Part shown: positions 31,201 to 49,098 of the stretch, in pieces
How the letters are laid out: every line of letters begins with the position of its first letter
How positions within the stretch are numbered: the first letter of the stretch is position 1
Source of the DNA: an uncultured Legionellales bacterium
GTDB taxonomy: Bacteria; Pseudomonadota; Gammaproteobacteria; PIVX01
Assembly (NCBI GenBank): GCA_964352915.1
Contig: CAYGTQ010000004.1
Coordinates: forward strand, 1 to 51,613
DNA length: 51,613 bases
Direction of reading: 5' to 3'
Made by a program: the position numbers and the translations under genes
The notes under the pieces: model-generated
The model's input: the letters and a program-made list of their open reading frames with translations, nothing else
What the model was told of the DNA's origin: nothing
The model's database searches: none

Positions 31201-31456
31201 TGAAAAAGTTCAAATTGCCTTAAGACTGTTGTCCCACAAAAATCTTGCGCTGATCCTGTCCTTGGAATAATAGAATCATAATGTTTAAGGATTTCACCAC
31301 CACGGTAACCAACCTAGGTTGTGCTGATAAAATAGTCATATAGAGCAAAGGGTTAATGATTCTCATCTCATGCCAACCCTGCGCGAACCCTATCATCCAT
31401 TAAACAACGATGTGCAACTCAGGGTAGCGAGCTAAAATATCGATTCGTAGATTCAA
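31201..31456 (-). pseudogene. rimK: Frameshifted, 3'-truncated rimK relic (not in ORF track)
   Basis: Read across frames: MNLRIDILARYPELH / HEMRIINPLLYMTILSAQPR / GYRGGEILKHYDSIIPRTGSAQDFCGTTVLRQFE, colinear with the N-terminus of intact RimK at 41733. Confidence 0.85.
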
Positions 31457-31522
31457 ATTAGTTTACGAACTCACTTGTTAGAGTATAATCTAGAGGAGTT
31501 AATTTAGGGAAGTATATTTTAC

Positions 31523-31993
31523 ATGACCATTAAAAATGCAAATTTACCGATACTAGGCTGGAAAGAATGGTGCTCTCTGCCTGGGCTATCTATTCCCCTA
31601 ATTAAAGCTAAAATAGATACAGGTGCGCAAACATCTTCTTTACATGCCTATGATCTTAAAACTTTCCGCAACAGAGGAAAGGATTGGATTAAATTTAATG
31701 TTCACCCTTTGCAATTTAACCGAAGCGTGACTATAGCCTGTCAGGCACCAATTATAGACAGACGCTACGTCACCAGCTCAAATGGCCAGCGAGAAAAGCG
31801 TTATGTGATCAGCACACTTTTGCAGCTAGGGAATTTATCATTCTCAACAGAAGTGACGCTGACTGATAGAAGCCAAATGAATCTAAGGTTATTGCTCGGT
31901 AGAAAAAGCCTTGAAAGTTTTTGTATTTATCCCTTCAAAGAAATGTGTTTAGGGAAATATAAATCTGATGACGTCAAAGCGCTTTATGAATAA
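31523..31993 (+). CDS. RimK-associated retropepsin-like protease (RimB type, 'ATP-dependent zinc protease' family)
   Basis: LGWKEW..LP.L..IKAKIDTGAQTSSLHA, SSNGQ.E.RY, LTDRS.M...LLLGR. Confidence 0.9.
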   Translation: MTIKNANLPILGWKEWCSLPGLSIPLIKAKIDTGAQTSSLHAYDLKTFRNRGKDWIKFNVHPLQFNRSVTIACQAPIIDRRYVTSSNGQREKRYVISTLLQLGNLSFSTEVTLTDRSQMNLRLLLGRKSLESFCIYPFKEMCLGKYKSDDVKALYE

Positions 31994-32067
31994 CTTGAGA
32001 GGTAATAAGATAGAGGCGCACTGATATGATACATAGCTTCTGGTAACTGATTCACTTGCATTTGATT

Positions 32068-32356
32068 ATGCAAACCTACACTACTGATTTGCTATTAGGA
32101 ATAACTCTAAAAATGGTGGGATGCTCATTTAATCATAACTGTGTAAAACAAACGTAAAGACTTTATAACCATGACAAAGGATCAACAAAGTCCTTATATT
32201 TAAGCGCATGTGTGCTTACAGGACGTGAAGGAGAGCTTAAATCGTAAGTAGCGTGGCCTCCAAGGCCATTCGATTTTGATATAACTGTCAAACATATCCC
32301 CCATCATTGGGAGGCATTCGAGCAGATTCAGTCTAAAACCTTTTGACATGCATTAA
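32068..32356 (+). pseudogene. Internally deleted OmpA-C-like lipoprotein pseudogene (family member 2; not in ORF track)
   Basis: Fragments LLGITLKMVGCSFNH / DFITMTKDQQSPYI*AHVCLQDV / RGLQGHSILI / TVKHIPHHWE / SLKPFDMH* match 25431..25946 in order. Confidence 0.8.
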
Positions 32357-32495
32357 TTTAACACAGACAAGCCTGCTAAATTGTAGGCCTTTGTTGAAGC
32401 AGTAGCATAGCACTACTCTATCGCCGCTTAAAGGTTGTGAAGTCATATTGAAATTATTATAATGAGACTCACGCCATTCCAAAAAGGAAAAGTCC

Positions 32496-33044
32496 ATGAC
32501 AGTATATGTAAAAATCTCAGGTCTGGCTCTGAGCTTGGCTTTTACCTATTGTTTTGCTCAGATTTCAGTTGCGCAAGATATAGCTGATCCAGATGATGGC
32601 TATGCTGCTATCTATCAAGAAGAATTATCATGGCATAATCAATACATTTATCAACACCATTGCTTAAAAGAAATCGCCAAAGCACCTTATATGGTTTTGT
32701 TTGAACCCAATGAATTTAAGATCCCTACACCCTACCTAGTGAACGCGCAATTTACGGCAAATTGCTTAAAAGAACACCCCCAAGTAAGCTTGATCATTGA
32801 AGGGTTTGCATCACGTGAGGGTGATGAAATCAGCAACAACAAGCTATCAATTTCAAGAGCTGAAGCATTTCAAAAAGAACTGTTTAAATTAGGCATAGAA
32901 AAAAGTAGAACCGCAATTTATGGCCTAGGCACTTATGAAAAGACCCCAGCTCATGGTTGGCGCAGCAAAGGAAAATACAACCGAAGAGTAAAGCTTATAC
33001 CATACGTCGATATAAAACGACTTGACCAGATGATTGATAATTGA
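32496..33044 (+). CDS. OmpA-C-like domain periplasmic protein (family member 3)
   Basis: Signal peptide; HCLKEI..APYMVLF, CLKEHP..LIIEGFAS, LSISRAEA, HGW, YNRRV. Confidence 0.87.
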   Translation: MTVYVKISGLALSLAFTYCFAQISVAQDIADPDDGYAAIYQEELSWHNQYIYQHHCLKEIAKAPYMVLFEPNEFKIPTPYLVNAQFTANCLKEHPQVSLIIEGFASREGDEISNNKLSISRAEAFQKELFKLGIEKSRTAIYGLGTYEKTPAHGWRSKGKYNRRVKLIPYVDIKRLDQMIDN

Positions 33045-33260
33045 ACTTTGTCTTCATGCTTTAATTATACGACCATCAAAATGCAATCCACCTTTGCCAT
33101 CTGACTTATAAAAGCTCTAAATTGAATGCGCATTGCCCTTCTCTGCCTAAAATCACATTGCAGTCAAAAACAGCTTTTAGCTGATATAATTAACTGGCTT
33201 TAGGTGCTCATCATTAGTTCAGAATATCTTTTTTGTTACATCTTTTATTAAAAAAATATC

Positions 33261-33288
33261 TTTACAATTTAAAAAAGAGGTATATGAT
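33261..33288 (+). promoter_or_regulatory. sigma70-type promoter of the 80-aa gene
   Basis: TTTACA-N16-TATGAT, followed by leader hairpin GTGCGG-CATA-CCGCAC (33311-33326) and AGGAG RBS. Confidence 0.45.
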
Positions 33289-33368
33289 TTAGATGGTTCC
33301 CCATGTTTATGTGCGGCATACCGCACGTTGGATAGGGTTTAAAAGTACGTTGATATAGGAGAATAACG

Positions 33369-33611
33369 ATGAGCGTGCTTAATCTTCAAAAAAGTTCTTA
33401 CGATACCTCATATGAAGATTTTCTTGATGACTATGATGATTATGGTAGTTATGACACTCCAGATGACTTCTTAATGAATGCTGAAAATGACGATAATTTT
33501 TTCATTGATCTGCATCAGATGAAACAAGATATGACTGTCAAGAGATGTTTTGGACATATGGAAAAGAGAAATAAACCTACAATAAAAAAGATGCGAAAAC
33601 ATTTAGTATAG
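33369..33611 (+). CDS. Small protein with acidic N-half and basic C-tail
   Basis: AGGAG RBS, own promoter candidate and downstream hairpin; no family recognised. Confidence 0.7.
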   Translation: MSVLNLQKSSYDTSYEDFLDDYDDYGSYDTPDDFLMNAENDDNFFIDLHQMKQDMTVKRCFGHMEKRNKPTIKKMRKHLV

Positions 33612-33614
33612 TTT

Positions 33615-35048
33615 TCAAGCCCGAAGCTTTAGCTTCGGGCTGTCTTTGATGCCCTGCAACTTGATTGTATAAAACCTTGATAGCTTACTATTGCAATACA
33701 GCCATAAGATAATGATAGCAAAGAAAACAAGTACAATATAAGGTAAAATACTCATTTGATCACCTGCTGTGACCATGAGAAGACCTCCCTGACCCACTGC
33801 GCTTAAGCTTTTACCGAGCCTCGCCCCAAAAACATCGATAATTGCTTTGCTTTTTGATTTTTCATAAACCGATAGAGGAATATAAAGCAGCTCTTTTGAG
33901 GCATCAAAGAGAGAAAACTTGGACGCTTCGCTCATAGAGTTTTGCATCATACCCAAAATTACTATGACAAATAAAGGCGCTAAGTTGAATCCAGACATAA
34001 TAAAAAAAATAGATGCCGTGCTCCCCATAATGCACGGCGTAATATTTGCAGACAATCTCCAGGGATACCGTGCAAATAGGTAGTTGCTCAATATAACAAA
34101 TAACATAGTAGACAAACCCAACAAAATTGCATAACTTGACATAAATACAGAATATTCGTTGATGCTCGGATATTGCATTTTAACAAAATATTTCCAGGTA
34201 ACTTCACATAAATTTAGGCATATGCCACAACTCAAAACAATAATACATAGGTACATTAAATAAGGATTATCTTTTAGATAAATGAAATCTTCTTTGATCG
34301 ATTTTCTCTGACGATGTTTTGCCAACTGGTTATTTTTTTCTATTATATCGTATTGATTAGAGGCATAATAAATAGCCGTCAAGACCATGATTGAACATGA
34401 AAATACACAAGCTACAACCCTCAACATGCTTTCCATATCTCCATTAAAATATAGATTAGTATTTCTCATGAAAAACCCGGCAACTATGGCAGCTGTCTGT
34501 GATACAAATATAAGTGAGGGGTAAATTTTTCGTGCTTCAGAGATGCTAACATTTGAATTCACGTACCACCAAAATATTAGGTTTAAGATAAGGCTGATCC
34601 ATAACTCTGACATAACATAAAACCAAACACTGAGCCAATGAGCAAGCATTGCTAACGGCCATTGAAACTTCGGGTATTGATATTGTAGGATTTGTATTTT
34701 GTGAAAATTAATTTGCAAGTATGTCATATTAGGGTAGAGTATTAAAAAGAACAAGAGAAAAAAAGCGCAGAAGATAGATGCCAGCACATAAAACACTAGA
34801 TAAGGAGAAATCTTAGATAATAATTTACTGTAAAAAATAATAGATAACAGTGATGCGGGGAGTACAGCAAATATTTTTACAAAAGGAATAACCTCTGCAC
34901 CAGAACCAGGGGATGTAATAAGTAATGCATCTTTTAAGTTATTTAAAATTGTGTAAATAAAAATAATTAAAAACATCATGGATGCTAGGCGTATGAATTT
35001 TCCTTGCCTAAAAAATGATTTTGTTCTAATAGCCATAATGACCCTCAA
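33615..35048 (-). CDS. Nucleotide transporter, ADP/ATP translocase (NTT/TLC) family, divergent
   Basis: KDALLITSPGSGAEVIPFVK, YVMSELW, FW..N..EARK.YP, NLCEVTWK, LFDASKELLYIPL, K.KAIIDV.GARLGKS; likely start ATG 35036. Confidence 0.9.
   Translation of the reverse strand: MRVIMAIRTKSFFRQGKFIRLASMMFLIIFIYTILNNLKDALLITSPGSGAEVIPFVKIFAVLPASLLSIIFYSKLLSKISPYLVFYVLASIFCAFFLLFFLILYPNMTYLQINFHKIQILQYQYPKFQWPLAMLAHWLSVWFYVMSELWISLILNLIFWWYVNSNVSISEARKIYPSLIFVSQTAAIVAGFFMRNTNLYFNGDMESMLRVVACVFSCSIMVLTAIYYASNQYDIIEKNNQLAKHRQRKSIKEDFIYLKDNPYLMYLCIIVLSCGICLNLCEVTWKYFVKMQYPSINEYSVFMSSYAILLGLSTMLFVILSNYLFARYPWRLSANITPCIMGSTASIFFIMSGFNLAPLFVIVILGMMQNSMSEASKFSLFDASKELLYIPLSVYEKSKSKAIIDVFGARLGKSLSAVGQGGLLMVTAGDQMSILPYIVLVFFAIIILWLYCNSKLSRFYTIKLQGIKDSPKLKLRA
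33618..33641. terminator. GC-rich palindrome between convergent genes
   Basis: AGCCCGAAGC-TTTA-GCTTCGGGCT; lies inside the last codons of the translocase gene, 6 nt after the stop of the 80-aa gene. Confidence 0.6.
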
Positions 35049-35751: not shown

Positions 35752-36342
35752 TCATTTTTGAGTAGAATTTTCTTCATTTGCATTATGTAAAATGGTAGAG
35801 TTTTCCTCCAACTGTTTTTGCCGCTTAATGTCAACGTAAGGGATAACTTTGATGCGCCGCTTGTATTTATCTCTGCTGTGCCAGCCATGGGCAGAAGTTT
35901 TTTCATAAGCTCCCAAGCCATAAGTAGCTATTCTGCTTTCTTCTATACCTAATTTGATTAATTCTGTTGCAAATGCTTCAGCTCTTAAAATTGACAGCAT
36001 ATCATTGGTATTTTCATTACCTTCAAATGCAGAAAATCCTTCAATAATTAAGCTGATTGGCGGGTGCTCTTTTAAACATTTTGCTGTGAATTGCACGTTT
36101 TTCATAAAAGGTTTGGGGATGTTATATTGATTCACATCAAATAAAACCATATAGGGTGCTTTATTAATCTCTTTCAAGCACTGGTGTGCGCTAATGTACT
36201 CATTTTGCCAGGGCACTTCTTCTTGATAAATCTCATCATAATCTTCGTCAAGTTCACTTGGCATTTGAGCAAAACAAGGCATTATGGATAAACTTATTAC
36301 AAATCCTACAATAGAAATATACGCTTTCATCACATGCTCCAA
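35752..36342 (-). CDS. OmpA-C-like domain periplasmic protein (family member 4)
   Basis: Close paralog of 32496..33044 (IYQEE..W.N.YI..H.CLKEI.KAPYMVLF; GLG.YEKT.AHGW; IPYVDIKR). Confidence 0.87.
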   Translation of the reverse strand: MEHVMKAYISIVGFVISLSIMPCFAQMPSELDEDYDEIYQEEVPWQNEYISAHQCLKEINKAPYMVLFDVNQYNIPKPFMKNVQFTAKCLKEHPPISLIIEGFSAFEGNENTNDMLSILRAEAFATELIKLGIEESRIATYGLGAYEKTSAHGWHSRDKYKRRIKVIPYVDIKRQKQLEENSTILHNANEENSTQK

Positions 36343-36480: not shown

Positions 36481-37443
36481 TTAAATAAATTTTTTGCGTT
36501 TTAAATAAATCACTTCCAAAATAATTAAAAGAATGATGATTGCAAAGGTACCCAGGAAAGAGGGGTTTTTCATATTATCTATCAAATGGCTGGTATTAGC
36601 ACCCAAAATAGATAGAAGGAAGCTTGGTGGGATAAATAAAATGGACATAATAGACAACACATATACTTTTTTATTAGCCTGCTCTGCTACCAGTTGAATC
36701 ATTGCGTCACGAATAATGTCCAAACGAGCCCTAATCATCTCTAATGATTCAGAAGCATTATCCAATTGTCTAATCAAAGACTGCCACTTGATCCTTGCCT
36801 TGCCTTTGATGCGAGCATCCAAATCTACGGCACGGCCATGAGTTAAATCACGTTGAAATGCGAGACTTCTACGAATAAGTAAAGCCGAATGGCGAATTTT
36901 GGCCAGCTTTTGCCTTAAGTGATGGTGCCCTGTCAGCTGATTATCGAGTTTATCGACTTCATTCTCGAGTTCATGAATCGCATCAGAGCGCCTGCACGTA
37001 AAATTTGTTAAAAGAGAAATCATTAATTCTTCAATTGACTTAGGGCCTTGTTTTTTTTCAAAGTCATTCATCAGATCATTGATCAGACTGTTGTCTTGTT
37101 CTTGGACCGTAATCACGTAGTGCTTGTTAAGATATACCCTAAGAGATGTAGTGTGCTGCAAGTTGATTTCATCATTTTTTGCTACACCATTAAGTACCAA
37201 TAAAACACCATTTTCCAGCGCTATGATTCTAGATATAGGTTCTTTTGCCAGAAGCACGCCACTGATCTCGGGATCAATACCGAGCGTTTGCATGGGCAGC
37301 AAAGAAGATAAATTTAACCTAGTACAGTGAAGCCACAAAGGAGTTTCCAGCTCTTGCGAAAAATCCCCTTGATGTGGTGTTATGCCGCCTTCTTGATCGA
37401 GACTGTAGCGCCATAGCGTTTCTGTATCAAAAAGTTGTGTCAT
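36481..37443 (-). CDS. CorA/ZntB-family divalent cation transporter
   Basis: WLH N-domain, SLRVY, long stalk helices, two C-terminal TMs with ILFIPPSF...GAN (GxN motif). Confidence 0.85.
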   Translation of the reverse strand: MTQLFDTETLWRYSLDQEGGITPHQGDFSQELETPLWLHCTRLNLSSLLPMQTLGIDPEISGVLLAKEPISRIIALENGVLLVLNGVAKNDEINLQHTTSLRVYLNKHYVITVQEQDNSLINDLMNDFEKKQGPKSIEELMISLLTNFTCRRSDAIHELENEVDKLDNQLTGHHHLRQKLAKIRHSALLIRRSLAFQRDLTHGRAVDLDARIKGKARIKWQSLIRQLDNASESLEMIRARLDIIRDAMIQLVAEQANKKVYVLSIMSILFIPPSFLLSILGANTSHLIDNMKNPSFLGTFAIIILLIILEVIYLKRKKFI

Positions 37444-38648
37444 GTTGTAACCAAAGATTCTTTTTTATAATCGCTTGATCGCTGATAGGGCTTCAGCTCA
37501 AACAAAGGAAGTATCGCGAGTAAGTGATTAAAGATCTTACTTTGTATGGCTTCATAGCTTCGCCAATCTGTTGTGTTGGTAAAACAATATAGCTGCACTG
37601 GCAGACCGCTGTCAGAGGGCTCAAGGGCTCGTACCAACAAAGTAAATCCTTTATCTGTGATGTCTGGATGACTTTTGAGGTACTGTTCAATATAGGCAAT
37701 CAACAAGTCACTGTTTGTTACTTTAGCTTCTTTTTCAATACAACGATCTATCACAGAAGCAAGCTCAGGAGAAGATTTTTTAATTTTAGCTAATTTTTTA
37801 ATGTCCATAAAATGGACATCATTCACATCGAGGTAAATAGAACGCTTGATACGACGCACACCTGCTTGATACATACCACGCCAGTTTTTCACCGACGAAC
37901 TGACAAGAGCTTGAATAGGCACTGTCGAGAAAGTTTTATCGAAATTTTTAACTTTGACTGTGGTTAAGGTCATATCCATCACATCACCATCAATTTTCTG
38001 TGATGGCACTTCAATCCAATCACCTATACGTACAATATCATGAACTGCAAGTTCAATGCTGGCGATTAAACCAAGCAAAGTCTCTTTGAATACGAACATC
38101 AACACCGCGGTCATAGCACTAATGCCGGCCAACAAAGACCACAGTGATTGACCAAGTAACAAAGCTACCACTAACAACGCAGCCAACGATAGCAACACCA
38201 GCTTTAAAAGCTGAAGATAGCTTTTAACCGGACGTCTTTGAGATATTTCTAGCCTATTATAAGCCTGTTGAAGTGTATCCAGAACAGAAAAAATCAGGGC
38301 TGTTATAACAAAGACCATAGTGATGTTGAGTAACAGCTTAATCAAATCAATGGCTGCAGATTGTACGCCCCATGCTGCCAAAGACGGCAAAATCAAGTGT
38401 GCGATCAAGACAGGCACCATATGCCCAAGCCATGAAATGGCCTTATTTTTTTCAAAGAAATGCTGCCACGGCTTGTAGCTTCTTGCAAGAAGACCCTGAA
38501 CTACCCTAGATAAAGAATGAACAACTGCTCTATCCAACAACACAAACAGAACCATCAGAGATACGACCACGACGAGAGCTGCTAAACTTTGAGCAAAGAT
38601 AGGAGCAACCCCCCATGCGGCAAGATAAGTTTGAATCATAGTAATCAT
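37440..38648 (-). CDS. Mechanosensitive channel, MscS family (YbdG-like)
   Basis: KSYLQ..K, AMTAVLMFVFKETLLG..ASI, GDWIEVP..DGDV...LTTVKVKNFDKT, KNWRGM...RRIKRS, GLPVQLYCF. Confidence 0.92.
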   Translation of the reverse strand: MITMIQTYLAAWGVAPIFAQSLAALVVVVSLMVLFVLLDRAVVHSLSRVVQGLLARSYKPWQHFFEKNKAISWLGHMVPVLIAHLILPSLAAWGVQSAAIDLIKLLLNITMVFVITALIFSVLDTLQQAYNRLEISQRRPVKSYLQLLKLVLLSLAALLVVALLLGQSLWSLLAGISAMTAVLMFVFKETLLGLIASIELAVHDIVRIGDWIEVPSQKIDGDVMDMTLTTVKVKNFDKTFSTVPIQALVSSSVKNWRGMYQAGVRRIKRSIYLDVNDVHFMDIKKLAKIKKSSPELASVIDRCIEKEAKVTNSDLLIAYIEQYLKSHPDITDKGFTLLVRALEPSDSGLPVQLYCFTNTTDWRSYEAIQSKIFNHLLAILPLFELKPYQRSSDYKKESLVTT

Positions 38649-38769
38649 TACATTCTCTACAACTTAACGCTTGTATGGCGGCTATTGTAATGAGTTTTTT
38701 TCTTAAAGCAACTGTGTTAATTGATATTTTAGATAGCTTTTAACGCACCTACGATAAAGCTCTGACCCT

Positions 38770-39702
38770 TTAGGGCAAAGCAAAATGCCAATGCAGGGCT
38801 TGTGAGAGTTGAATCAGAATCTGCTCACCACGCACACTGTTACCTTTGGTATTAACACGTGGGCTTGCCACAGTAATGCCGACTTTTCCAGGTAAAACCG
38901 CTACCATCAATCCAGAAACACTGCTTTTAGCAGGCATGCCTGTTTGTACCAGATGCGCACCAGATTCATTATACAACCCACAAGTAGCCATAATAGATAC
39001 TGTATGCGCTACTGTATTTTCTGAGAGAACCCTCTTGCCATCGTGCTGTCCACCATTGGCTAACAAAGTAGGCAAGCGAGCCAACACTGGTAGTGTCACT
39101 TCAAAAGAGCACAGAGCAAAATAAGTCTCCAAAGTTTCTGTGATGTCACCTTCCATCAAACCATTGCTTTCCATTAAATATGCTAGAGAACGATTACGAC
39201 CGCCTGTGCGGCGCTCTGATGCAAAGACTTTAGCATTTAAATTAGGCTTTTCTCCAAGAATTTTAGCCATCCAATCTTCTATCCAGCGTATTTTTTCCTC
39301 TATATTGCCAGGGATATGGCTGCACAGTGCTATGGCTCCAGCATTAAGCATAGGGTTTGATGGTATAGGGCCAAATTGATCCAAGCGTGCTACAGATGAA
39401 AAATCACTACCAGAAGGCTCTACTCTAACCCATTGCAGCAGCTGCTCAAGACCATACCCCTCCAATAAACCGATCAGCACTATCAGCTTCGAAATGCTTT
39501 GCAATGAAAAGTTATGCTCTAAAGCATTACCGACCTGCACAGTCTTACCCTCAACAGTCTGTGCAACAATGCCTATCAAATCTGGATCAACATCTGCAAG
39601 TTCTGGAATATAATCAGTCACTCGACCCTGATCATTGTCAGCTACTGACTCCAGAATTTCATTAAGGAATGCTTTAGTCAGCTTAGCAGGAGAAGATTTC
39701 AT
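38770..39702 (-). CDS. glsA: Glutaminase A
   Basis: DYIPELA, FSLQSISK (SxxK), EPSG, NPMLNAGAI, TCGLYN.SG, PAKSSVSG, GNSVRG. Confidence 0.95.
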   Translation of the reverse strand: MKSSPAKLTKAFLNEILESVADNDQGRVTDYIPELADVDPDLIGIVAQTVEGKTVQVGNALEHNFSLQSISKLIVLIGLLEGYGLEQLLQWVRVEPSGSDFSSVARLDQFGPIPSNPMLNAGAIALCSHIPGNIEEKIRWIEDWMAKILGEKPNLNAKVFASERRTGGRNRSLAYLMESNGLMEGDITETLETYFALCSFEVTLPVLARLPTLLANGGQHDGKRVLSENTVAHTVSIMATCGLYNESGAHLVQTGMPAKSSVSGLMVAVLPGKVGITVASPRVNTKGNSVRGEQILIQLSQALHWHFALP

Positions 39703-40922: not shown

Positions 40923-41732
40923 TAGACATCCTTTAAACATTATGGTCCTAAGAATTTTCACGTGGTTGGCATTATACCATACTAGCCCATAATAGAAATT
41001 AAAAACATCTTCTAAAGGACAAGGTTCATCAATCCACACTTATCACTAGGTTATGATTATCGAGAATTTTTATTGCCTATGTGCTTTTTAAAAATTTATA
41101 TCACTGATAATTAGGTGGTTGTATGCGTGGAGATGTTAAAAAACAGAATCATGACATGTTTAATTTTGTTAACATGGGTACTTGACTTTGGTTTCTATCA
41201 AACTGAAAAATCTTGCAGACAAAAGAGGGTATCTTTCTGATGCATTTCTACTCTATTTCTACTCATTTAATTCCAAGCATGTGCAATTTCAAGATGGTGA
41301 ATTATTGATGCAAACGGTTATCGTCATAGCGCGGACCATAAAACTCTAGGAACCATCGATTTTTTTACAGTTAAACCTCATAGATAACATCATTATTGGA
41401 CCACCAACCCGCAGAAAAAATGCTAGCTATAAGCAGGTTCTGGATTTACTATAGCAGCAAATATGGATTAATTAAAACTCGCTATGCATACATATTGCAC
41501 CAATCGTGCCTGTTTAATACGGCTAGGACATGCTATCAGTCAACTTATAAACGCTTTACAGTTTTGTGCGTATAATAAAAACTTGATTGATTACCAGCAA
41601 CCGACAAATACCCAACTATTCTTATTCCATAAGAGCTATTTGCATCGAATACAAACGATGTGCTTTTGAACTAACTAGAATGCAAAGTAATTTAGTGCAA
41701 GGCTAACCAATGAACGATATGGGGATATATTT

Positions 41733-42647
41733 ATGAAAATTGGAATACTATCAAGAAATGCCAAGCTTTATTCAACCAAACGTTTGGTTGAAGCCTCAGA
41801 GAAGCGTGGACACGAAGTTAGGGTGGTAGATGCGCTACGTTGCTATATGAACATCACTTCAAGTAAACCAACTGTCTATTACAAAAACCGTGGCAACAAA
41901 GATATTCTTAAATTTGATGCCATTATTCCACGGATCGGTGCATCAATTACAAATTATGGTACTGCGGTTTTAAGACAGTTTGAAGTTGGCAACACTTATT
42001 CCATTAATGAGTCCATAGCTATTTCACGCTCCAGAGATAAATTACGTGCTCATCAACTGCTTGCTCGAAAAAAAATTGATATGCCAATTACGGGGTATGC
42101 AAATCGCGCTGATGCTACAGAAGATTTAATCGAGTTTGTAGGAGGAGCCCCTCTCATAGTAAAAGTGATTAACAGCACTCAAGGAAGAGGAGTATTAATG
42201 GCTGAAACTAATAAAGCTGCCGAAAGCTTGATTAACGCTTTTCGTGATTTACAAACTGAATTTCTGGTGCAGGAATTTATAAAAGAAGCCGATGGGGCTG
42301 ACATACGATGTTTTGTTATTGGAGATAAAGTTATTGCTGCAATGCGCCGCACAGCTAAAGATGGTGATTTTCGTTCAAATTTACATATGGGCGGGACTGC
42401 AGAAATTATAAAATTAAAACCTGATGAGCGTGCATTAGCTATCAAGGCTGCTAAAGTTATGGGCTTGGATGTTGCCGGTGTTGATATCATACGCGCTACC
42501 CGCGGGCCATTAGCTTTGGAGGTAAACTCTTCTCCAGGACTGCAAGGGATCGAAGCAGCTACAGGCAAAGATGTAGCGGGAGCTATTATTGAATACATAG
42601 AAAAAGATTCAAAGAAGGGGCCTAATAAAACAACAGGACAAGGCTAG
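41733..42647 (+). CDS. rimK: Alpha-L-glutamate ligase RimK (ATP-grasp)
   Basis: [65 protein letters not shown]. Confidence 0.96.
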
Positions 42648-42648
42648 C

Positions 42649-43680
42649 ATGATCAATAAGAACCAAAAATTAGTCATTGGAGGCATTCATATTGAACCAG
42701 GAACTAGGACTCAGATTGAGTTGCCCGTGGCCAAATTATTTGATTATACTGAAATGAGCATTCCTGTTGAAATCATTCGCGGCAAAGAAGATGGGCCGAT
42801 TCTCTTTCTGTCTGCGGCTATCCATGGTGATGAAATTAATGGCATAGAATCTATAAAAAGAATGCTATCAAAAAGAAAAGCTTTCTCAAAACTAAAAGGG
42901 ACGCTCATTGCAGTCCCCATTGTTAATATTTTTGGGTTTAATAGAAACATTCGCTATCTTCCTGATCGTAGAGATTTAAACAGGTGCTTTCCTGGTTCAG
43001 CCAATGGCTCTTTAGGTGGTCAAATTGCTAAAATTTTTATGGATGAGATTGTCAACAAATGCACACACGGCATTGATTTGCATACAGCTGCGATTAACCG
43101 CACTAATCTACCTCAAATAAGAGCCTGCCTTGACGACTCAGAAACAAAACGCTTAGCTCTGAACTTTGGAGTTCCTGTGGTTTTAAATTCTGATTTGAGA
43201 GATGGCTCATTGCGGCAAGCAGCTTTGGAGAAGGGAATACCTATGTTGTTGTTTGAAGGTGGTCAAGCTTTGCGCTACGAAGAAAAAATCATAAAATCTA
43301 CGATCAAAGGTATTTTATCCGTGATGCAATCCATTGGTATGATCGAAGGAGAAATAATTACACTGAAGCAGAGAAAAAAAGAAGTTTTTATTGCGCATTC
43401 GAGTCACTGGATCCGCGCTCCGCATAGTGGTAGCCTTAGCATAAGAAAGAAAATAGGCGGCAGGGTAGAAAAGAACGAGTTACTTGGAGTTCTATCAAAT
43501 CCATTTGGCGGAGATAAGATTGAAGTTCGAGCAAAGAAGACAGGTATAATTATTGGCGTTACACTGATGCCTTTGGTTAATAACGGGGATGCATTGTTTC
43601 ATGTCGCAACATTTGATGACTCTGAAGCAGTTGAAGAGCGTGTTGATTTATTTGATGAAATGTTAGGGATAGAGAGTTAG
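42649..43680 (+). CDS. Succinylglutamate desuccinylase/aspartoacylase (AstE/AspA) family protein
   Basis: HGDEING, RDLNRCFPG, DLHT, FEGG, C-terminal biotinyl-like barrel; starts 1 nt after the rimK stop. Confidence 0.93.
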   Translation: MINKNQKLVIGGIHIEPGTRTQIELPVAKLFDYTEMSIPVEIIRGKEDGPILFLSAAIHGDEINGIESIKRMLSKRKAFSKLKGTLIAVPIVNIFGFNRNIRYLPDRRDLNRCFPGSANGSLGGQIAKIFMDEIVNKCTHGIDLHTAAINRTNLPQIRACLDDSETKRLALNFGVPVVLNSDLRDGSLRQAALEKGIPMLLFEGGQALRYEEKIIKSTIKGILSVMQSIGMIEGEIITLKQRKKEVFIAHSSHWIRAPHSGSLSIRKKIGGRVEKNELLGVLSNPFGGDKIEVRAKKTGIIIGVTLMPLVNNGDALFHVATFDDSEAVEERVDLFDEMLGIES

Positions 43681-44323
43681 GCATGCATTGCGAAAAGAAT
43701 TTAATAGGTTGCTAAAAAATACATCGCTCATGCCAGAATCATTAATAAATAGCTGTCCTTGTACGTGGTTATTGCTTTTAAGCATAATACTGTCAAGGCC
43801 TAAAAGTGACCATCTAGTAAAAGTCATGCTAAAATTTACACTTAACAACCTTGCAAAAATACCCGTGTGCAGTATAAATTTTTTGGCCACCTTCGTCATT
43901 ATGAGGCTTGAAAAGAGGTTATCTCCCAATGGCTCTGTTCATTTAGGGTTTAGTCTAAAGAGATTATTTCTCAACTGTATAAAAAATACCGCTGTTCTCG
44001 ACCATGATTGCAGGTGGATAAAATCTCTTGGTGCGTTTTATGCTTATATTATTTCTCGTGGCAACCAACATCATATTGATTCAAATCAATTACTGCTTAA
44101 GAACCGCTTGCTCAGTAACATCTATGCTCGGACCCCGCAGGCATATGAATCACACCGCTCACCCCGATACTTTGGATACAAATCAATACATTCAAACGAT
44201 GAATTTGGCGTGATGCTTTAATCGATAAAACCTGGAGGTAAAAAGTGGTATTCCATCAAATATATACGGTGTATTTAAACATATTGCCCCCGCAAAGTGT
44301 GGTAAGTATAAAGAGGCAAGCTT

Positions 44324-45631
44324 ATGGAAGATAGTTCATTTTTAATGTCCATTTTATCTGTCCTGGGTTTGATATTGTTGTCGGCTTTCTTTTCATGTTC
44401 TGAGACAGGTATAACTTGTATTACACGAGCAAAAATTCATAAACTGAAAATGGAAGGTAATAAGCGAGCAATCGCTCTAAGCAAGTTACGCGAAGATAAA
44501 GAGAGGCTGATTGGCGCCATTCTTTTGGGCAATAATATAGTAAATATTGCAGCCTCAGCCATCGCAACAGCACTAGCCATTCGTTATATAGGCGAAAGCG
44601 GAGTGGCGTATGCTACTGCTGTGATGACCATACTGGTTTTAGTGTTTGCCGAAGTCCTGCCAAAGACCTATGCTGTACGCAATGCAGAAAAAGTTGCGCT
44701 TTTCGTTGTTCCTATATTTGTGCTCATAACAAAAGTGCTTTCTCCCTTTACTAAGGCTGTACAAGGGATTGTCAATGCTACGCTTGGCATGTTTTCAAGT
44801 GAGGCAACTGAAAGCATGAGCGGCGTTGAAGTGTTGCGTGGCGCCGTTGACATGTACCACGAAGAAGGTAATGTATTAAAAGAAGACAAAGATATGCTGA
44901 GAGGCATTCTTGATCTTGAAGCAATTGAAATTGAAGATATTATGATACATCGTAGTGATATGGTCTCAGTTAATATTGATGCGCCAATCAAAACAATTTT
45001 TCGTGATATTGCCAAGAGTTCATATTCACGTGTTCCTCTATGGAAAGGTTCTCCAGAGAACATTGTTGGGGTCGTTCATACAAAAGATATATTTAAAGCG
45101 CTAGAAAATCATGCAGGTGATTTAGACAAGCTTGATATAAAAACACTACTGCAAAAACCATGGTTCGTGCCTAAAACCACTACGCTCAAAAATCAGCTAA
45201 AGGCTTTTCGCGATAACCATCGTCATTTTGCTTTAGTTGTTGACGACTTTGGTAGCATCAATGGTTTAGTAACGCTTGAAGATATCATAGAAGAGATTGT
45301 CGGAGATATAGAAGATGAACATGATGAGCCAAATCACTCACGTATCCGTAAATATAAAAATGGCACGTATAATGTTGATGGAGATGTAAGCATACGTGAT
45401 TTGAATCGAGAAATGGGATGGATCTTGTCTGATGACGATGCCACCACGGTCGCAGGGTTGGTTCTTTCTTCTGCTCAACGCATACCAGAAATAGATGAAA
45501 CATTCGAAGTACAAAATTTTTTATTTAAAGTATTGAAAAAAGAAGGCGCTCAGATAACACGTATTCAGATTCGCGAACCAAAAAAGACCACATTGGATAA
45601 AACAGAAAAATCTGGCAACGACATTACCTGA
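44324..45631 (+). CDS. HlyC/CorC-family (CNNM/DUF21 + CBS pair + CorC_HlyC) transporter
   Basis: SAFFSCSET, ILLGNNIVN, FAEVLPK, YSRVP, VVDDFG..GLVTLEDIIEEIVG.I.DE.D. Confidence 0.93.
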   Translation: MEDSSFLMSILSVLGLILLSAFFSCSETGITCITRAKIHKLKMEGNKRAIALSKLREDKERLIGAILLGNNIVNIAASAIATALAIRYIGESGVAYATAVMTILVLVFAEVLPKTYAVRNAEKVALFVVPIFVLITKVLSPFTKAVQGIVNATLGMFSSEATESMSGVEVLRGAVDMYHEEGNVLKEDKDMLRGILDLEAIEIEDIMIHRSDMVSVNIDAPIKTIFRDIAKSSYSRVPLWKGSPENIVGVVHTKDIFKALENHAGDLDKLDIKTLLQKPWFVPKTTTLKNQLKAFRDNHRHFALVVDDFGSINGLVTLEDIIEEIVGDIEDEHDEPNHSRIRKYKNGTYNVDGDVSIRDLNREMGWILSDDDATTVAGLVLSSAQRIPEIDETFEVQNFLFKVLKKEGAQITRIQIREPKKTTLDKTEKSGNDIT

Positions 45632-46060
45632 ATTTTTCGTCCAACATTCTAAAATTGCATTTGAAAACCTTTTAGGAGATGCTAGATAGGCTGCCTTGTA
45701 ATTGGCTGCGATTTATTGCAAGAGCTTATGCTTTTGCATGATATAGACCTAAATACATTCTTAATAGATTATACACAGATAACTCTTCATAGAGAGTCAG
45801 TAGCGCCAGAGGCGATTTTATAATAGGATGTAAACATATGCAGGCAAAAATCTTCAATGAAAAGTTTTGCCTATGCTCACAACCAGAGGTAAAAAACATT
45901 GTTTGGGAAGCTGAGATCAACACCTATGCTTCAGGCAACCCACACTGTCCTTATTTGACCATTTATTCCACATTGCATTGGCCCCATGGAATAGAATACG
46001 TTTATAGCTCTTGCGCCAACGCATGCTACAACACAACTGTCCTCCATAAGGAACCTAAAT

Positions 46061-46912
46061 ATGAATAAAATAAGCACATTTAATTGGCAAGAATCATTAA
46101 GTCAGACTTATGAGGTCGTTGTTAAACAATTTATCGAAATAGCCCCACAGTTACTGGGAGCAATTGCCCTGTTAATAGCCGGCTGGATTGCTGCTTGTGC
46201 TATGCAAGCAGCAGCAAAAAAACTCGTGGAAGGTCTTGACTCATTATTCAAACGTGCTGCAACAATAGACGGAGCCAAACAGGAAAGAATGAAACGTTCC
46301 TATGCAGTGATTATTGGTAAGTTAATCTTTTGGATCATCATGCTATTTTTTATCACGGCTGCAGGAAATATGCTGGGCTGGAAGATGTTTTCTGGCTGGA
46401 TGGACAGCATTATCAATTATTTACCCAATCTGATCACAGGCCTGTTGATTATTCTTGCAGGTTTCCTCCTAGGTAATGGAATAAGAACAACTATCATCAG
46501 CACAGCCGATGCGACTGGTGTAGAACAAAGCAAACTGTTAGGACGAACTGTCCAAATGCTTGTATTTCTGACTGCCATTATTGTCGGAGCCAGTCAAACC
46601 GGTATAAACGTTGGCCTTTTAAGCAATATCCTCATTATCACCATTGCTGTACTACTTGCTGGCGGGGCGCTGGCATTTGGTTTGGGCGCAAAAACACTTA
46701 TTGCCAATATTATAGGCGCTCAATATATGCGAAAGCATTGCCGCATAGGCGAAGAAATAATCATTGGAGAAGCGCATGGTGTTATTGCAGAGGTAACAGA
46801 AACATCCATTGTACTTGATACAGATGGTCGACGAACGGTAGTTCCTGCAAAGAATTTTCATGAATGCGTTTCTCATTTTTTTTCAGACAATGAACATTCT
46901 AATGAAATTTGA
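46061..46912 (+). CDS. Small MscS-family protein with conserved TM-helix repeats
   Basis: Two TM-helix repeats (APQLLGAIALLIAGW; LPNLITGLLIILAG), ALAFGLG...NIIG, IGEEI..GVI.EV beta domain. Confidence 0.85.
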   Translation: MNKISTFNWQESLSQTYEVVVKQFIEIAPQLLGAIALLIAGWIAACAMQAAAKKLVEGLDSLFKRAATIDGAKQERMKRSYAVIIGKLIFWIIMLFFITAAGNMLGWKMFSGWMDSIINYLPNLITGLLIILAGFLLGNGIRTTIISTADATGVEQSKLLGRTVQMLVFLTAIIVGASQTGINVGLLSNILIITIAVLLAGGALAFGLGAKTLIANIIGAQYMRKHCRIGEEIIIGEAHGVIAEVTETSIVLDTDGRRTVVPAKNFHECVSHFFSDNEHSNEI

Positions 46913-46927
46913 AATGAATACATTATA

Positions 46928-47761
46928 ATGATTGACAAAAAAATAGATTTGGCATTAGCTTTCTTAGAAAGAAAACCTAGTGCTGCTGCAAGAACATTGG
47001 AACAACAACCTATGGAAGAAGTTGCATGTTTTTTAAATGAGCTCCCCTGCGCATGCGCTTCACCAATGTTAGCCCAAATGCTACCTCAATATGCAGCAAG
47101 AATTTTTTTGCAGCTAGATCCAAAGCTCTGCGCAGGGTTTCTAGACGAAATGGAGGTGAGTCAAATAGCCGCTATTCTACGTTACTCCAAACAGAATGTG
47201 CGAAATAAGATCCTAAGCTTTATTTCCGAAAAATCTAAGATTGCCTGCAAGTTACTCTTAAACTACTCCGAAGATTCTGTAGGAGCATGGATGACAACTC
47301 AGGTGGCAGCATTACCTGATTGCTCTGTAGATGATGCTTTGAAGCGACTAACCACTGAAGAGATTTCTATTGATGTCAGTACACTCTATGTAATTGATAG
47401 TGAAAGGCATTTACAAGGCTCAATCAGCGCAGCTGATTTGCTGCGCGCTGATTTAAATGCCCCCATCATGTCGGTGATGCAAAAAAAGACGGCTGTATTA
47501 CAAGGGCGCTCATCCCTATTTTCTATACAAGACCATCAAGGATGGAAGACGCTTGACACTCTCCCTGTTCTTAATAGAAATCACCAATTAGTTGGGGTAC
47601 TGCGCCACATTGATTTAAGAAAAGGCTTAGAGCAAATTGCAACCACAGTTAAAGTTCATAAGAATGGAGACTTTATTAGTAATATTTGTGAAGTATATGG
47701 AAGAACTCTGCTGGCTCTCTTTAGCTCAGTGGGTGAAATGACTAATGCGAAAAAAGAATAG
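46928..47761 (+). CDS. Stand-alone MgtE-like cytosolic protein (MgtE_N + CBS pair, no TM domain)
   Basis: AAARTLE helical repeats, LLNYSEDSVGAWM, CBS motifs LYVID..LQG and LPVLN...LVG. Confidence 0.8.
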   Translation: MIDKKIDLALAFLERKPSAAARTLEQQPMEEVACFLNELPCACASPMLAQMLPQYAARIFLQLDPKLCAGFLDEMEVSQIAAILRYSKQNVRNKILSFISEKSKIACKLLLNYSEDSVGAWMTTQVAALPDCSVDDALKRLTTEEISIDVSTLYVIDSERHLQGSISAADLLRADLNAPIMSVMQKKTAVLQGRSSLFSIQDHQGWKTLDTLPVLNRNHQLVGVLRHIDLRKGLEQIATTVKVHKNGDFISNICEVYGRTLLALFSSVGEMTNAKKE

Positions 47762-47772
47762 GCAAAATAACC

Positions 47773-49098
47773 ATGGCAACTAAAGAAACATCAGCAAGCA
47801 ATCTCTTAGATGCTTTAAAAAAAACATTCTTACTCAATTATCCAACAGAGGCCGCACGCGCAATAGAAATCATGCTGCCGCAAGATGCTGCTGAAGCCTT
47901 AGATGATCAACCAATTTATGTTCTGGAACGGGTTTGTTCGAATCTTGCGCCCGGAATTATGGATGAAGTGTTATTAAAATTATCAGAGGAAAAGGCAAAA
48001 AACCTCTTAATGGCAATGGATGCAGGACCAAGCGCAGCATTAATAAGTCGGCTTGGTTCAGAAAAACAAGAGTATTTTCTTTCTTTATTAGACCAGTCTA
48101 TAACTGAAGAGCTGCGAGAATTGTTAGCGTATCCTGACAATACTGCTGGTAAATTAATGGACACAAAAGTTACTGCGTTTCATGAGGACATCACTGTAGA
48201 GAATGCGATAAAACAATTGAAAAATCAGAAAGTTCAAGCACTAAATCATTTATTCTTGATAGACAGCCGTATGTGTCTAAAAGGTCAGGTAGATATGCAA
48301 AAAATTGCACTGGCGGAAAACAATCAAAAGCTTTCCTCAATTTCTGAACCAATTCATGCTTATGCGACCTTGCTTGAACCCAAAGATGAAGTGATAGGAA
48401 AACTGCAAAAACTTAATATCGCTGTCATTCCTGTGGTTGATGGCAATAATCGCCTTGTGGGAGTGATTCAAGAAAGCAATCTTATTGAAACGCTGAAGGA
48501 AGCTATTGCATCTGATATACAAACCATGGTTGGTGTGAGCAAAGATGAGCATGCCTTATCGAGCGCATGGTTTGCTGTTAAAAAACGCCAGCTTTGGCTA
48601 CAAGTCAATCTGCTTACGGCATTCATGGCTGCTGGTGTGGTAGGTATGTTTGAAGATACAATTGCAAAATATACAGCACTCGCCATTCTTCTACCGATTG
48701 CCGCAGGTCAATCCGGTAATACGGGCGCACAATCCTTAGCTGTCACCATGCGTGGGCTGACATTGCGAGAAATTACTGTAAGACACTGGTTGCGTGTTAC
48801 CATTAAAGAAGCGGGAGCCGCTGCAATTAATGGTGCAGCCATCGCCCTGACATGCAGTATTGGAGTCTATTTTTGGAGTGGTAATCATGGTCTTGCATTA
48901 ATTATTGCTCTCGCTATGATTTCATCCATGATTTTAGCCGCCGTAGCAGGTGCTCTTGTGCCAATTATTCTAAAGCGTATGGGACAAGATCCTGCTTTAT
49001 CGTCATCTATTATTCTGACAACCGTGACGGACATTGCTGGCTTTATGTCTTTCTTAGGCATTGCTTCCTCACTTTCTTATATGTTGGATGCAGCTTAA
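47773..49098 (+). CDS. mgtE: Magnesium transporter MgtE
   Basis: MgtE_N, LLAYPDNTAGKLM, CBS pair, R..WL.VNL, P...GQSGNTGAQ, DPA..S...TTVTD pore Asp. Confidence 0.92.
   Translation: MATKETSASNLLDALKKTFLLNYPTEAARAIEIMLPQDAAEALDDQPIYVLERVCSNLAPGIMDEVLLKLSEEKAKNLLMAMDAGPSAALISRLGSEKQEYFLSLLDQSITEELRELLAYPDNTAGKLMDTKVTAFHEDITVENAIKQLKNQKVQALNHLFLIDSRMCLKGQVDMQKIALAENNQKLSSISEPIHAYATLLEPKDEVIGKLQKLNIAVIPVVDGNNRLVGVIQESNLIETLKEAIASDIQTMVGVSKDEHALSSAWFAVKKRQLWLQVNLLTAFMAAGVVGMFEDTIAKYTALAILLPIAAGQSGNTGAQSLAVTMRGLTLREITVRHWLRVTIKEAGAAAINGAAIALTCSIGVYFWSGNHGLALIIALAMISSMILAAVAGALVPIILKRMGQDPALSSSIILTTVTDIAGFMSFLGIASSLSYMLDAA

Follow-up and report, generated by a model that had tools for sequence, protein, structure and literature searches.

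A RimK/AstE-like/RimB-like gene set joined to Mg2+ and mechanosensitive channel genes in an uncultured Legionellales bacterium: a possible link between glutamyl-chain turnover and salinity adaptation

The stretch of DNA analysed here, referred to as the window, comprises the 51,613 nucleotides at positions 1 to 51,613 of contig CAYGTQ010000004.1 (assembly GCA_964352915.1), from an uncultured Legionellales bacterium. Between positions 31201 and 49098 it carries a gene for the glutamate ligase RimK immediately followed by a gene for a zinc hydrolase of the AstE/AspA family, together with a gene for a RimB-like protease and a dense set of genes for mechanosensitive channels of the MscS family and for Mg2+ transport. 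Comparison with other genomes shows rimK-astE, with or without rimB, as what appears to be a mobile core whose operons have repeatedly taken in mechanosensitive valves and Mg2+ channels or transporters, the latter being interchangeable. A first inspection of the letters (the original prediction) had proposed for this interval a complete cycle leading from glutamine to a glutamate polymer and back. The inventory on which it relied proved real, an open reading frame (ORF) map, Pfam and NCBIfam having confirmed all of its genes within 31201-49098: a glutaminase, the RimK-AstE pair, a RimB-type protease, a rimK relic, an M42-like peptidase, two MscS and four Mg2+-handling genes. As to the labels, the genes are present, whereas the retropepsin and the M42-like protein score under the curated cut-offs and the CorA-like protein displays the motif GAN and not GMN; the second, decayed rimK exists, but is tiny, with only ~50 codons recognisable. 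Genes of MscS or Mg2+-transporter families represent 6 of the 12 genes between 36.4 and 49.1 kb, a share far above chance. The features of the locus are as follows:

31194-31352, minus strand: relic of a second rimK (codons ~34-86), found by tblastn, with stop codons around and within it
31523-31993, plus strand: RimB-like retropepsin-type aspartic endopeptidase (PF05618, 116.5 bits)
36481-37443, minus strand: CorA-superfamily divalent-cation channel, ZntB-like (Pfam CorA, 150 bits)
37440-38648, minus strand: MscS-family mechanosensitive channel (PF00924, 50.5 bits; PF21082, 20.5 bits)
38770-39702, minus strand: glutaminase A (TIGR03814, 310.6 bits, cut-off 255.4)
39819-41039, minus strand: M42-like metallo-aminopeptidase (Pfam M42, 22.0 bits, cut-off 23.2)
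41040-41732: divergent intergenic spacer of 693 bp between the M42-glsA-mscS-corA and rimK-astE strands, with no Rfam family
41733-42647, plus strand: RimK, alpha-L-glutamate ligase (ATP-grasp) of canonical type (NF007764, 429.5 bits, cut-off 331)
42649-43680, plus strand: AstE/AspA-family zinc hydrolase (PF24827, 123.6 bits, cut-off 25)
44324-45631, plus strand: CNNM/CorC-family transporter (Pfam: CNNM transmembrane domain, 159 bits; CBS pair, 62 bits; CorC_HlyC, 72 bits)
46061-46912, plus strand: small MscS-like membrane protein, first gene of a triad (PF05552, 43 bits)
46928-47761, plus strand: soluble MgtE_N + CBS protein of 277 aa, second gene of the triad (Pfam), with no membrane domain
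47773-49098, plus strand: MgtE Mg2+ channel, third gene of the triad (TIGR00400, 246.4 bits, cut-off 232.75), with MgtE_N, CBS and membrane domains

By score, the RimK of the window is an orthodox S6/poly-Glu ligase. Its Pfam domains Rimk_N and RimK reach 137.8 and 223.9 bits, it aligns over its full length to the structures 7qyr, 7qys, 5zct and 4iwx, with 400 bits to Pseudomonas 7qyr and 378 bits to E. coli 4iwx/5zct, and it is 61.5% identical to the RimK encoded on a plasmid of Vibrio europaeus. The junction with the following gene reads TAG-c-ATG, with a spacer of 1 nt, from which the AstE-like gene is predicted to be translationally coupled to rimK. The AstE-like protein itself remains under every NCBIfam equivalog cut-off (76.2 bits for 402.7 with DoeB, 27.9 for 180 with aspartoacylase and 20.1 for 170 with AstE). 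Among 20 homologues, the HGDE, DLH and FEGG positions are invariant, as are H59, E62, H145 and E203, which align to 3cdx and which we take, after aspartoacylase, to be the zinc ligands and the catalytic base; eleven arginines are also invariant, a feature that would suit an anionic substrate. The AlphaFold (AF2) model of the protein (predicted local distance difference test, pLDDT, 80; predicted template modelling score, pTM, 0.82) superposes best on DoeB 6twm (template modelling score, TM, 0.75) and on CphZ 8ein, a cyanophycin dipeptide hydrolase (TM 0.68, E 2e-17), and less closely on the succinylglutamate desuccinylases proper (TM 0.43-0.51), on aspartoacylase (TM 0.46-0.49) and on the tubulin deglutamylase CCP5 8v3o (TM 0.41). 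This partner is highly conserved (65-81% identity across phyla), its closest relative in the survey described below being the copy of locus L001, with 71% identity.

Family, modelled fold and gene coupling together point to an exopeptidase or dipeptidase acting on alpha-glutamyl chains. RimK is described as glutamylating RpsF and making poly-alpha-glutamate, while RimB removes glutamates, or cuts poly-Glu, and stimulates the synthesis of poly-alpha-Glu (PMC11957791). RimB requires a run of about five glutamates (PMC11957791), and the secreted RloA paralogues, poly-Glu-cleaving enzymes that are necessary during hypo-osmotic stress, require eight (PMC12239564), so that the clearance of short products to glutamate appears as the missing activity, which we infer to be that of the AstE-like hydrolase.

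A genome search with the 20 aligned AstE-like homologues retrieved at least 596 stretches with a relative, of which the best 80 were examined with their 10-kb flanks (loci designated by L numbers). When the 21 window proteins were compared by phmmer to all 5910 flank ORFs, astE was found in 80/80 loci, rimK, adjacent to astE, in 48, rimB in 39, where it is adjacent to rimK, mgtE in 9, corA and cnnm in 6 each, small mscS in 5, mgtE_N in 4 and mscS, weakly, in 2; glsA and the M42-like subfamily of the window were found in none of them (0/80 each). Since phmmer with one divergent query misses distant members of a family, the 3962 flank ORFs of at least 80 aa were clustered all-against-all and the cluster representatives annotated by Pfam. 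Once the synteny specific to Halomonadaceae (Dus, RND efflux, TetR) was set apart, the families recurring in the largest numbers of loci around the core were MscS (13 loci), CorA (11), MgtE (9), small MscS (5) and CNNM (5).

At least one MscS, CorA, MgtE or CNNM gene lies within 10 kb in 20 of the 48 loci having rimK, as compared with 2 of the 32 loci having astE only (Fisher odds ratio 10.7, p = 6.5e-4, such simple statistics being inflated by the relatedness among loci), and both a Mg2+-type and an Msc-type gene are present in 13 loci. The density of channel genes, determined with hidden Markov models built from the neighbour clusters, is of 42 per 100 kb at less than 500 bp from the rimB/rimK/astE core and 11 between 0.5 and 2 kb, and then declines to 4.2, 3.3, 3.4 and 2.2 at increasing distance, being 2-3 past 4 kb, while the astE-only loci hold 2 channel genes in ~500 kb. 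In 13 loci a channel gene is co-oriented with a core gene and at most 200 bp from it, and in four of them (L015, L060, L069 and L071) its stop or start codon overlaps with that of the core. The layouts of these operons vary, as illustrated by rimB-rimK-astE-CorA-MscS in L009, MscS-CorA-rimB-astE-rimK in L060, rimK-astE-MscS-rimB in L071 and CNNM-rimK-astE in L069, and an adjacent MscS/CorA pair recurs in L009, L029, L033, L050, L054 and L060. The channel-positive loci are distributed among six phyla, with representatives in Pseudomonadota, Nitrospinota, Spirochaetota, Planctomycetota, Fraserbacteria and Desulfuromusa. On a tree of 81 AstE-like proteins, the 23 positives (22 loci and the window) require at least 18 state changes, which indicates that the channel linkage is not one inherited block.

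Pfam annotation of 273 of the 294 other ORFs lying no more than 3 kb from the core (the remaining 21 had already been classed as channels) added several genes of ion or osmotic function: MscL directly after astE (L029), Na+/H+ exchangers (L021, L028), Na+/Ca2+ exchangers (L048, L069), CDF (L010), TrkA_N (L069), OsmC (L033), an Ion_trans channel (L076) and a cation-chloride cotransporter by CorA-rimK (L066). The other neighbours within this distance are unrelated housekeeping genes. Transglutaminase-like genes were observed by the rim genes in L018 (12198-14353), L054 (12165-12959) and L055 (6508-7383); in L018, a 7TM-transglutaminase and a second retropepsin form an rlo-like unit beside the rim operon. 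Genes for diguanylate cyclases (GGDEF) flank rimK in L021 (6497-7363), L081 (6340-8061) and L082 (10731-12128), the latter two belonging to V. europaeus and Salinivibrio.

The same arrangement is found on plasmids. A tblastn search of the AstE-like protein against a plasmid collection gave 514 records, nine of which were inspected, and all five of the loci where an annotated rimK lies next to the AstE-like match show the channel pattern:

Vibrio europaeus pVeu: diguanylate cyclase-rimK-astE-retropepsin-MgtE-CorA-MscS-Usp, uninterrupted and all on the same strand
Salinivibrio proteolyticus: MscS and MgtE, followed by retropepsin-rimK-astE
Acaryochloris marina: retropepsin-rimK-astE, with MscS at 1.1 kb, between two TnpB copies
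Vibrio nigripulchritudo: rimK-astE-retropepsin-MscS-Usp, with ectABC-ask 4 kb upstream (L085 1-3693)
Phaeobacter inhibens: MFS-ZntB, divergent from PsiE-retropepsin-rimK-astE

On both Vibrio plasmids, universal-stress-protein genes (Usp) come after MscS (L081 13558-14445; L085 10814-11680). Neither glsA nor an M42-like gene of the window type was found in these five annotated loci; the only plasmid record having an M42-like homologue is an Acaryochloris plasmid carrying it together with rimK, at 30 kb from the latter and among unrelated genes. On another Acaryochloris plasmid, 'unnamed43', an unannotated gap separates the retropepsin gene from astE, MscS and Mg2+ genes are absent, and a cation:proton antiporter lies at 2.7 kb; the match on a V. 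parahaemolyticus plasmid is fragmentary and unannotated. The AstE-like proteins of Legionella lytica and Haloferax (35-36% identity) were rejected as members of other subfamilies, found without rimK and channels.

The co-occurrence of rimK and astE with mscS and Mg2+ transporters, as announced in the original prediction, is thus borne out by the 80 loci, by the density near the core and by the plasmids, and so is the recurrence in other bacteria of the protease-rimK-astE sub-cluster. The neighbourhood survey that it had called for nevertheless divides its gene list: mscS and mgtE do join rimK-astE, whereas glsA and the M42 gene of the window do not, and glutaminase and the M42 peptidase are not supported as conserved parts of the system.

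The RimB-like retropepsin has RimB (NF052261) as its best NCBIfam match, with 116.3 bits for a cut-off of 200, as compared with 58-75 bits for the RloA1-3 models; its DTGA motif coincides in alignment with that of the RloA structures 9g59 and 9g58, and it is 35-39% identical to rimK-adjacent homologues. In the window it is not next to the functional rimK, which is 9.7 kb away, and only the rimK relic adjoins it, head-to-head. The relic shares 48% identity over 33 aa with the window RimK (tblastn) and is matched by 46 RimK homologues from other loci. A longer type of RimK, of 402-416 aa and scoring lower to the window RimK, was observed in L027, L030, L031, L054 and L069; in L027, L030 and L054 it is divergent from or apart from rimB, as in the head-to-head layout of the relic and rimB in the window.

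On the minus strand, the M42-like, glsA, mscS and corA genes follow each other with gaps of 116, 121 and -4 nt and are divergent from rimK-astE. The divergent spacer contains an imperfect palindrome (41133-41175; 21-nt arms, 76% complementary, 1 nt apart), which may be an operator. The true start of the M42-like gene is likely near 40937, for a protein of 373 aa. Its homologues with 65-70% identity are named peptidase M42/FrvX and carry PF05343, a search for sequence matches in the PDB gave none, and H82, D84, D193, E219, E220, D246 and H344 are invariant in 15 sequences, positions which we take to be typical of the metal ligands of co-catalytic metallopeptidases. The stop of mscS and the start of the corA-like gene overlap as ATGA, and on this basis the two genes are predicted to be translationally coupled. 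The CorA-like protein is under the equivalog cut-offs of both ZntB (NF007092, 134 bits for 292) and CorA (TIGR00383, 73.6 for 200.75); the 12 rimK-linked CorAs (11 loci) comprise 11 with GMN and one with GIN at the position of its GAN motif. The MscS of the window is 28% identical to that of Salinivibrio.

This arrangement speaks for the full cycle of the original prediction, in which glutaminase, RimK, the three hydrolases RimB, AstE and M42, and MscS would constitute one integrated glutamate store buffering osmolarity and Mg2+. The four minus-strand genes share a strand with short gaps opposite rimK-astE, the M42-like protein retains all of the metal-ligand-type positions, and two distant echoes exist: in L070, which has rimB-rimK-astE, CorA is immediately followed by a canonical Peptidase_M42 gene (222 bits), and in L007 a gene of the asparaginase family stands at 2.5 kb from rimK. 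The M42 protein of L070 shows, however, no detectable similarity to the M42-like protein of the window, and the absence of glsA and of the window M42 subfamily from the 80 loci and the five annotated plasmid loci, added to the remote position of the M42-like gene on the Acaryochloris plasmid, makes this integrated store very unlikely. Glutaminase and the M42-like peptidase probably share an operon with MscS-CorA, an arrangement peculiar to this genome, where their co-expression is plausible; they would be at most local accessories supplying or recycling glutamate, outside the conserved module.

On the plus strand, the CNNM gene starts 643 bp after astE and the triad 429 bp after CNNM. The window CNNM is 25-30% identical to the rimK-adjacent CNNM of L018, L050, L051 and L069. 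In L010 (Nitrospinaceae), L028 (Porticoccus), L030 and L048, orthologues of the triad accompany rimB-rimK-astE; the MgtE of the window is 47-56% identical to its counterparts there, the small MscS 34-47% and MgtE_N 29-43%. The small MscS-like protein is matched only by the transmembrane-helix model PF05552, while its paralogue in L028 shows a weak PF00924, so that its MscS membership is partial. The soluble MgtE_N + CBS protein reaches only 70.4 bits with TIGR00400 and is itself no channel; it shares 23.5% identity with the N-terminal region of the neighbouring MgtE. The window thus holds three channel cassettes, namely MscS-CorA, CNNM and the small-MscS/MgtE_N/MgtE triad. A 177-codon ORF between astE and the CNNM gene (43688-44221, plus strand) has no Pfam or NCBIfam family and may not be a gene.

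The two flanks of the region are ordinary gammaproteobacterial backbone (glmM-folP-ftsH-rlmE-greA-carBA-dnaJK-grpE-hrcA-nadK-recN on one side, fur-bamE-rnfH-ratA-smpB on the other), and the stretch at ~19-49 kb, from recN to fur-bamE, stands apart in composition and is of lower GC, with a G+C content at third codon positions (GC3) of 0.21-0.39 in its genes vs 0.38-0.53 in the backbone. This low-GC3 stretch (~19000-49100) is rich in stress genes (two OsmY/BON-like, Dps) and further carries OmpA-like, cation-chloride-cotransporter-like, major facilitator superfamily (MFS) and TLC ATP/ADP-transporter genes; a search for tRNA genes gave none there, and an integrase was likewise not seen. Such a setting could be taken for a variable part of the chromosome where stress and transport genes without relation to each other gathered by chance, a view that finds further comfort in the fact that glsA and M42 are not conserved neighbours. 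The recurrence of the same channel families by rimK-astE in many unrelated genomes, with a density decaying steeply with distance, already contradicts it for the enzyme-channel part, and we consider it scarcely credible.

RecN (17133-18818, plus strand) has its best database match at 41% identity and shares 38% with RecN of Coxiella burnetii, from which the host appears to be a deep-branching gammaproteobacterial lineage without close sequenced relative. The identity to proteins of unrelated bacteria nevertheless reaches up to 81% for the AstE-like protein, 70% for the M42-like protein and about 61-67% for RimK, and the module genes are either unusually constrained or acquired by transfer. The other transporter genes of the stretch are:

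27646-29832, plus strand: prokaryotic cation-chloride-cotransporter-like protein of 728 aa (Pfam AA_permease + SLC12 C-terminal), possible periphery of the module
29845-31101, minus strand: MFS transporter (Pfam MFS_1) adjoining the rimK relic, possible periphery of the module
33615-35048, minus strand: TLC-type ATP/ADP transporter (351 bits)

The first two have one echo each among the compared loci, and their place at the periphery of the module is a weak lead: a cation-chloride cotransporter homologue, 24% identical, stands beside CorA-rimK-astE in the planctomycete locus L066, and the MFS protein is 28% identical, over its full length, to that of the Phaeobacter inhibens plasmid (L086 3728-6006), which accompanies ZntB beside rimB-rimK-astE. 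The TLC-type nucleotide transporter suggests an intracellular, energy-scavenging lifestyle. It is flanked by two inverted OmpA-like lipoprotein paralogues, 58% identical (32496-33044, plus strand; 35752-36342, minus strand), a third paralogue lying 7 kb off (25431-25946, minus strand). An 80-codon acidic ORF (33369-33611, plus strand) belongs to no Pfam or NCBIfam family. Two AT-rich segments of 1.35 and 1.5 kb (18819-20167 and 26126-27645) contain no ORF of at least 50 codons and no Rfam match.

Searched at gathering scores, the whole window has no Rfam match, and the hypothesis of a riboswitch or leader RNA in the longer spacers between genes was rejected, the only matches at E<=1 over 40900-46200 being three snoRNA/sRNA matches of chance level. 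Promoter-like sites (53 vs 58 expected) and terminator-like sites (22 vs 12.7 expected) define no operon in these scans. A tblastn comparison of the 3962 flank ORFs with the window revealed no gene relic except that of rimK, the intervals 43681-44323 and 45632-46060 having given no match, and no EAL domain was detected among the window ORFs scanned with Pfam/NCBIfam (23 + 21 ORFs).

RimK has been known for decades, the purpose of RimK and of poly-alpha-glutamate is debated, and rimK mutants are pleiotropic. Glutamate is the main anionic osmolyte. The reading we favour, stopping just short of calling it probable, is that the window represents one version of a conserved mobile RimK/AstE/RimB module in which glutamyl-chain turnover is coupled to Mg2+ and solute fluxes for salinity adaptation. 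RimK would add glutamates to the ribosomal protein S6 and/or to free poly-alpha-glutamate, as it does in close homologues, the RimB-like retropepsin would cut long glutamate runs, as does Pseudomonas RimB, and the AstE-like hydrolase, from its family, fold and gene coupling, would perform the exo- or dipeptidase step returning free glutamate. The module would by this means set how much glutamate charge is held in fixed, polymeric form, on S6 and/or as free polymer, while the co-expressed channels would move the Mg2+ counter-ion and small solutes upon salinity change. Mg2+, or a divalent cation, is taken as the relevant ion because three Mg2+-handling families interchange at the same position, in the manner of a non-orthologous displacement. 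The response of rimK and mgtE to salinity in Photobacterium damselae (PMC10308900), the greater frequency of rimK, corA and mscL in brackish genomes (PMC10219603) and the Mg2+ efflux of Bacillus subtilis on osmotic upshift (PMC8844918), all detailed below, also count in favour of this reading.

Several points weigh against this reading. The survey is restricted to the best 80 of at least 596 retrieved stretches, all of them AstE-like carriers, so that rimK was scored only where astE is present. Within it, 28 of the 48 rimK+astE loci, including L001, have no such channel neighbour within 10 kb, so that the link is facultative, frequent and not obligatory. An independent-pairs test of rimK vs channel presence had only 5 usable pairs (p about 1), and about half of the astE-only loci are from Halomonadaceae; the dependence of the channel linkage on rimK is therefore not shown once relatedness is allowed for. 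The MscS and CorA-like proteins of the window match the rimK-linked ones at the family level only (26-29 bits for MscS, 12-26% identity for CorA), and the lack of GMN makes the Mg2+ selectivity of the CorA-like channel uncertain. The AstE-like subfamily is uncharacterised, and as rpsF is not in the window, S6 tagging and free polymer are not separable here. The salinity-induced rimK of Photobacterium damselae, finally, stands alone (PMC10308900).

The main rival limits the module to the tuning of ribosomes: RimK, RimB and the AstE-like protein would write and erase the poly-Glu tail of S6, and the channels would respond to the same signal of low salinity and low Mg2+ with no coupling to a polymer. 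RimK scoring above the S6-ligase equivalog cut-off, with 400 bits to the Pseudomonas enzyme, is in line with this explanation, and the GGDEF genes by rimK in L021, V. europaeus and Salinivibrio echo the control of Pseudomonas Rim by cyclic di-GMP. In Bacillus subtilis, an osmotic upshift leads to Mg2+ efflux via a CNNM protein, and this loss impairs translation, the re-import of Mg2+ limiting translation and recovery (PMC8844918). Seawater dilution lowers Mg2+ and salinity together (PMC10219603), and a shared regulon would then suffice for adjacency. Channels embedded in operons with overlapping codons, as in L071 and L069, are nevertheless tighter than a regulon needs, RimB stimulates free poly-alpha-Glu synthesis (PMC11957791), and an exo-hydrolase related to a polymer-dipeptide hydrolase fits polymer turnover well. 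Restriction to ribosome tuning is in our opinion possible, if doubtful.

It has also been considered that RimK might make a small molecule, a glutamyl dipeptide or an N-acyl-glutamate serving as osmolyte, recycled by the AstE-like protein and exported by MscS or MFS. Characterised AstE/AspA members indeed have small N-acyl amino acids as substrates, DoeB, the closest relative of solved structure, functions in ectoine catabolism, ectABC lies 4 kb from the V. nigripulchritudo locus, and MFS genes neighbour the locus in the window, in Phaeobacter and in L007. An orthodox S6/poly-Glu ligase is however not what this product would call for, and RimB, a conserved partner requiring runs of at least five glutamates (PMC11957791), would be out of place there; we regard such a product as highly improbable.

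The favoured coupling of glutamyl-chain turnover to ion fluxes can be carried further, into an 'osmotic capacitor'. On a fall in salinity, glutamate would be polymerised to poly-alpha-glutamate, the charge of which would be neutralised by Mg2+ imported via CorA or MgtE, and many K-glutamate ion pairs would be converted into one polymer with condensed counter-ions, the carbon and nitrogen being retained. On a rise, RimB and the AstE-like hydrolase would free glutamate at once and CNNM would expel the freed Mg2+, MscS acting as an overflow valve and the tagging of S6 being a side branch or a read-out. As such we judge it rather unlikely. In its boldest version, a Mg-poly-glutamate constituting an osmotically silent store, it would be compatible with the induction of rimK (52-fold) and mgtE (5.35-fold) in P. 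damselae at 1% vs 3% NaCl (PMC10308900) and with the Mg2+ efflux observed on upshift (PMC8844918). The orthologue groups of rimK, corA and mscL are, for their part, more frequent in brackish than in marine metagenome-assembled genomes (PMC10219603). The operon-level link provides a concrete hypothesis, that glutamyl-chain turnover belongs to ion and osmotic homeostasis; if true, it would give a function to the very large family of 'succinylglutamate desuccinylase/aspartoacylase family proteins' and help to account for the low-salinity induction of rimK in a marine bacterium and for its enrichment in brackish-water genomes.

The closest known system is RimABK/RimBK of Pseudomonas, with which the window shares a canonical RimK and a RimB-like DTGA retropepsin, as well as the rimB-rimK adjacency of 39/80 related loci. 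The rimK of Pseudomonas always shares its operon with one or more further genes, such as rimB or rimA, while the enterobacterial rimK is solitary (PMC10092738). The distribution of the rim genes has been read as horizontal transfer (PMC11957791), and that of the present module is similarly transfer-like. The window differs by the absence of an EAL (RimA) gene among the scanned ORFs, by the coupling of its live rimK to an AstE-like hydrolase, rimB being 9.7 kb off by a dead rimK, and by the presence of Mg2+ channel and MscS genes; PMC11957791 contains none of the words magnesium, carboxypeptidase or deacylase. The rlo operon of P. aeruginosa (RloA secreted retropepsins, RloB 7TM-transglutaminase and RloC ATP-grasp) resembles it by the combination of a poly-Glu retropepsin with an ATP-grasp enzyme and has a hypo-osmotic phenotype (PMC12239564). 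The retropepsin of the window scores, in contrast, higher to RimB, no transglutaminase gene is present in the window, and RloA is secreted.

Two other comparisons concern the enzymes. In the cyanophycin cycle, an ATP-grasp synthetase makes a polymer, cyanophycinase cuts it internally and an enzyme of AstE/AspA fold hydrolyses the small product, a succession of roles similar to the one proposed here; the AstE-like protein of the window is however only 14% identical to CphZ, polymer and linkage differ, and we know of no channel linkage of the cyanophycin genes. CphZ may all the same serve as a useful precedent for an AstE-like fold member hydrolysing the small fragments of an ATP-grasp-built polymer. 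Eukaryotic tubulin glutamylation relies on TTLL ATP-grasp writers and CCP M14 carboxypeptidase erasers, thus also on a writer/eraser pair for glutamate chains with an eraser of zinc carboxypeptidase fold (CCP5 8v3o), but the folds resemble each other only remotely, and neither the substrate nor the cellular setting is the same. On the side of the channels, the osmotic Mg2+ flux of B. subtilis (MpfA/CNNM efflux and MgtE re-import) likewise ties CNNM and MgtE to osmotic adaptation and translation (PMC8844918); unlike the present module, it operates without glutamate ligase or hydrolase, in another phylum, and is linked by physiology and not by gene neighbourhood.

The original prediction had placed the novelty in the function and in the link to glutaminase and channels. 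The idea that the balance between glutamate and poly-alpha-glutamate under RimK and RimB affects osmolality is already present in the discussions of PMC11957791, where polymer synthesis is said to drain the glutamate pool and shift osmolality, and of PMC12239564, where glutamate/polyglutamate homeostasis is raised as a possibility, and glutaminase is not conserved. No description of the enzyme-channel linkage or of the AstE-like partner was found among the papers listed by the literature searches, although the 2009 amidoligase survey (Iyer) may mention it. What is new here with regard to these known systems is therefore not the osmotic idea itself, but the AstE-like partner and the linkage to channels.

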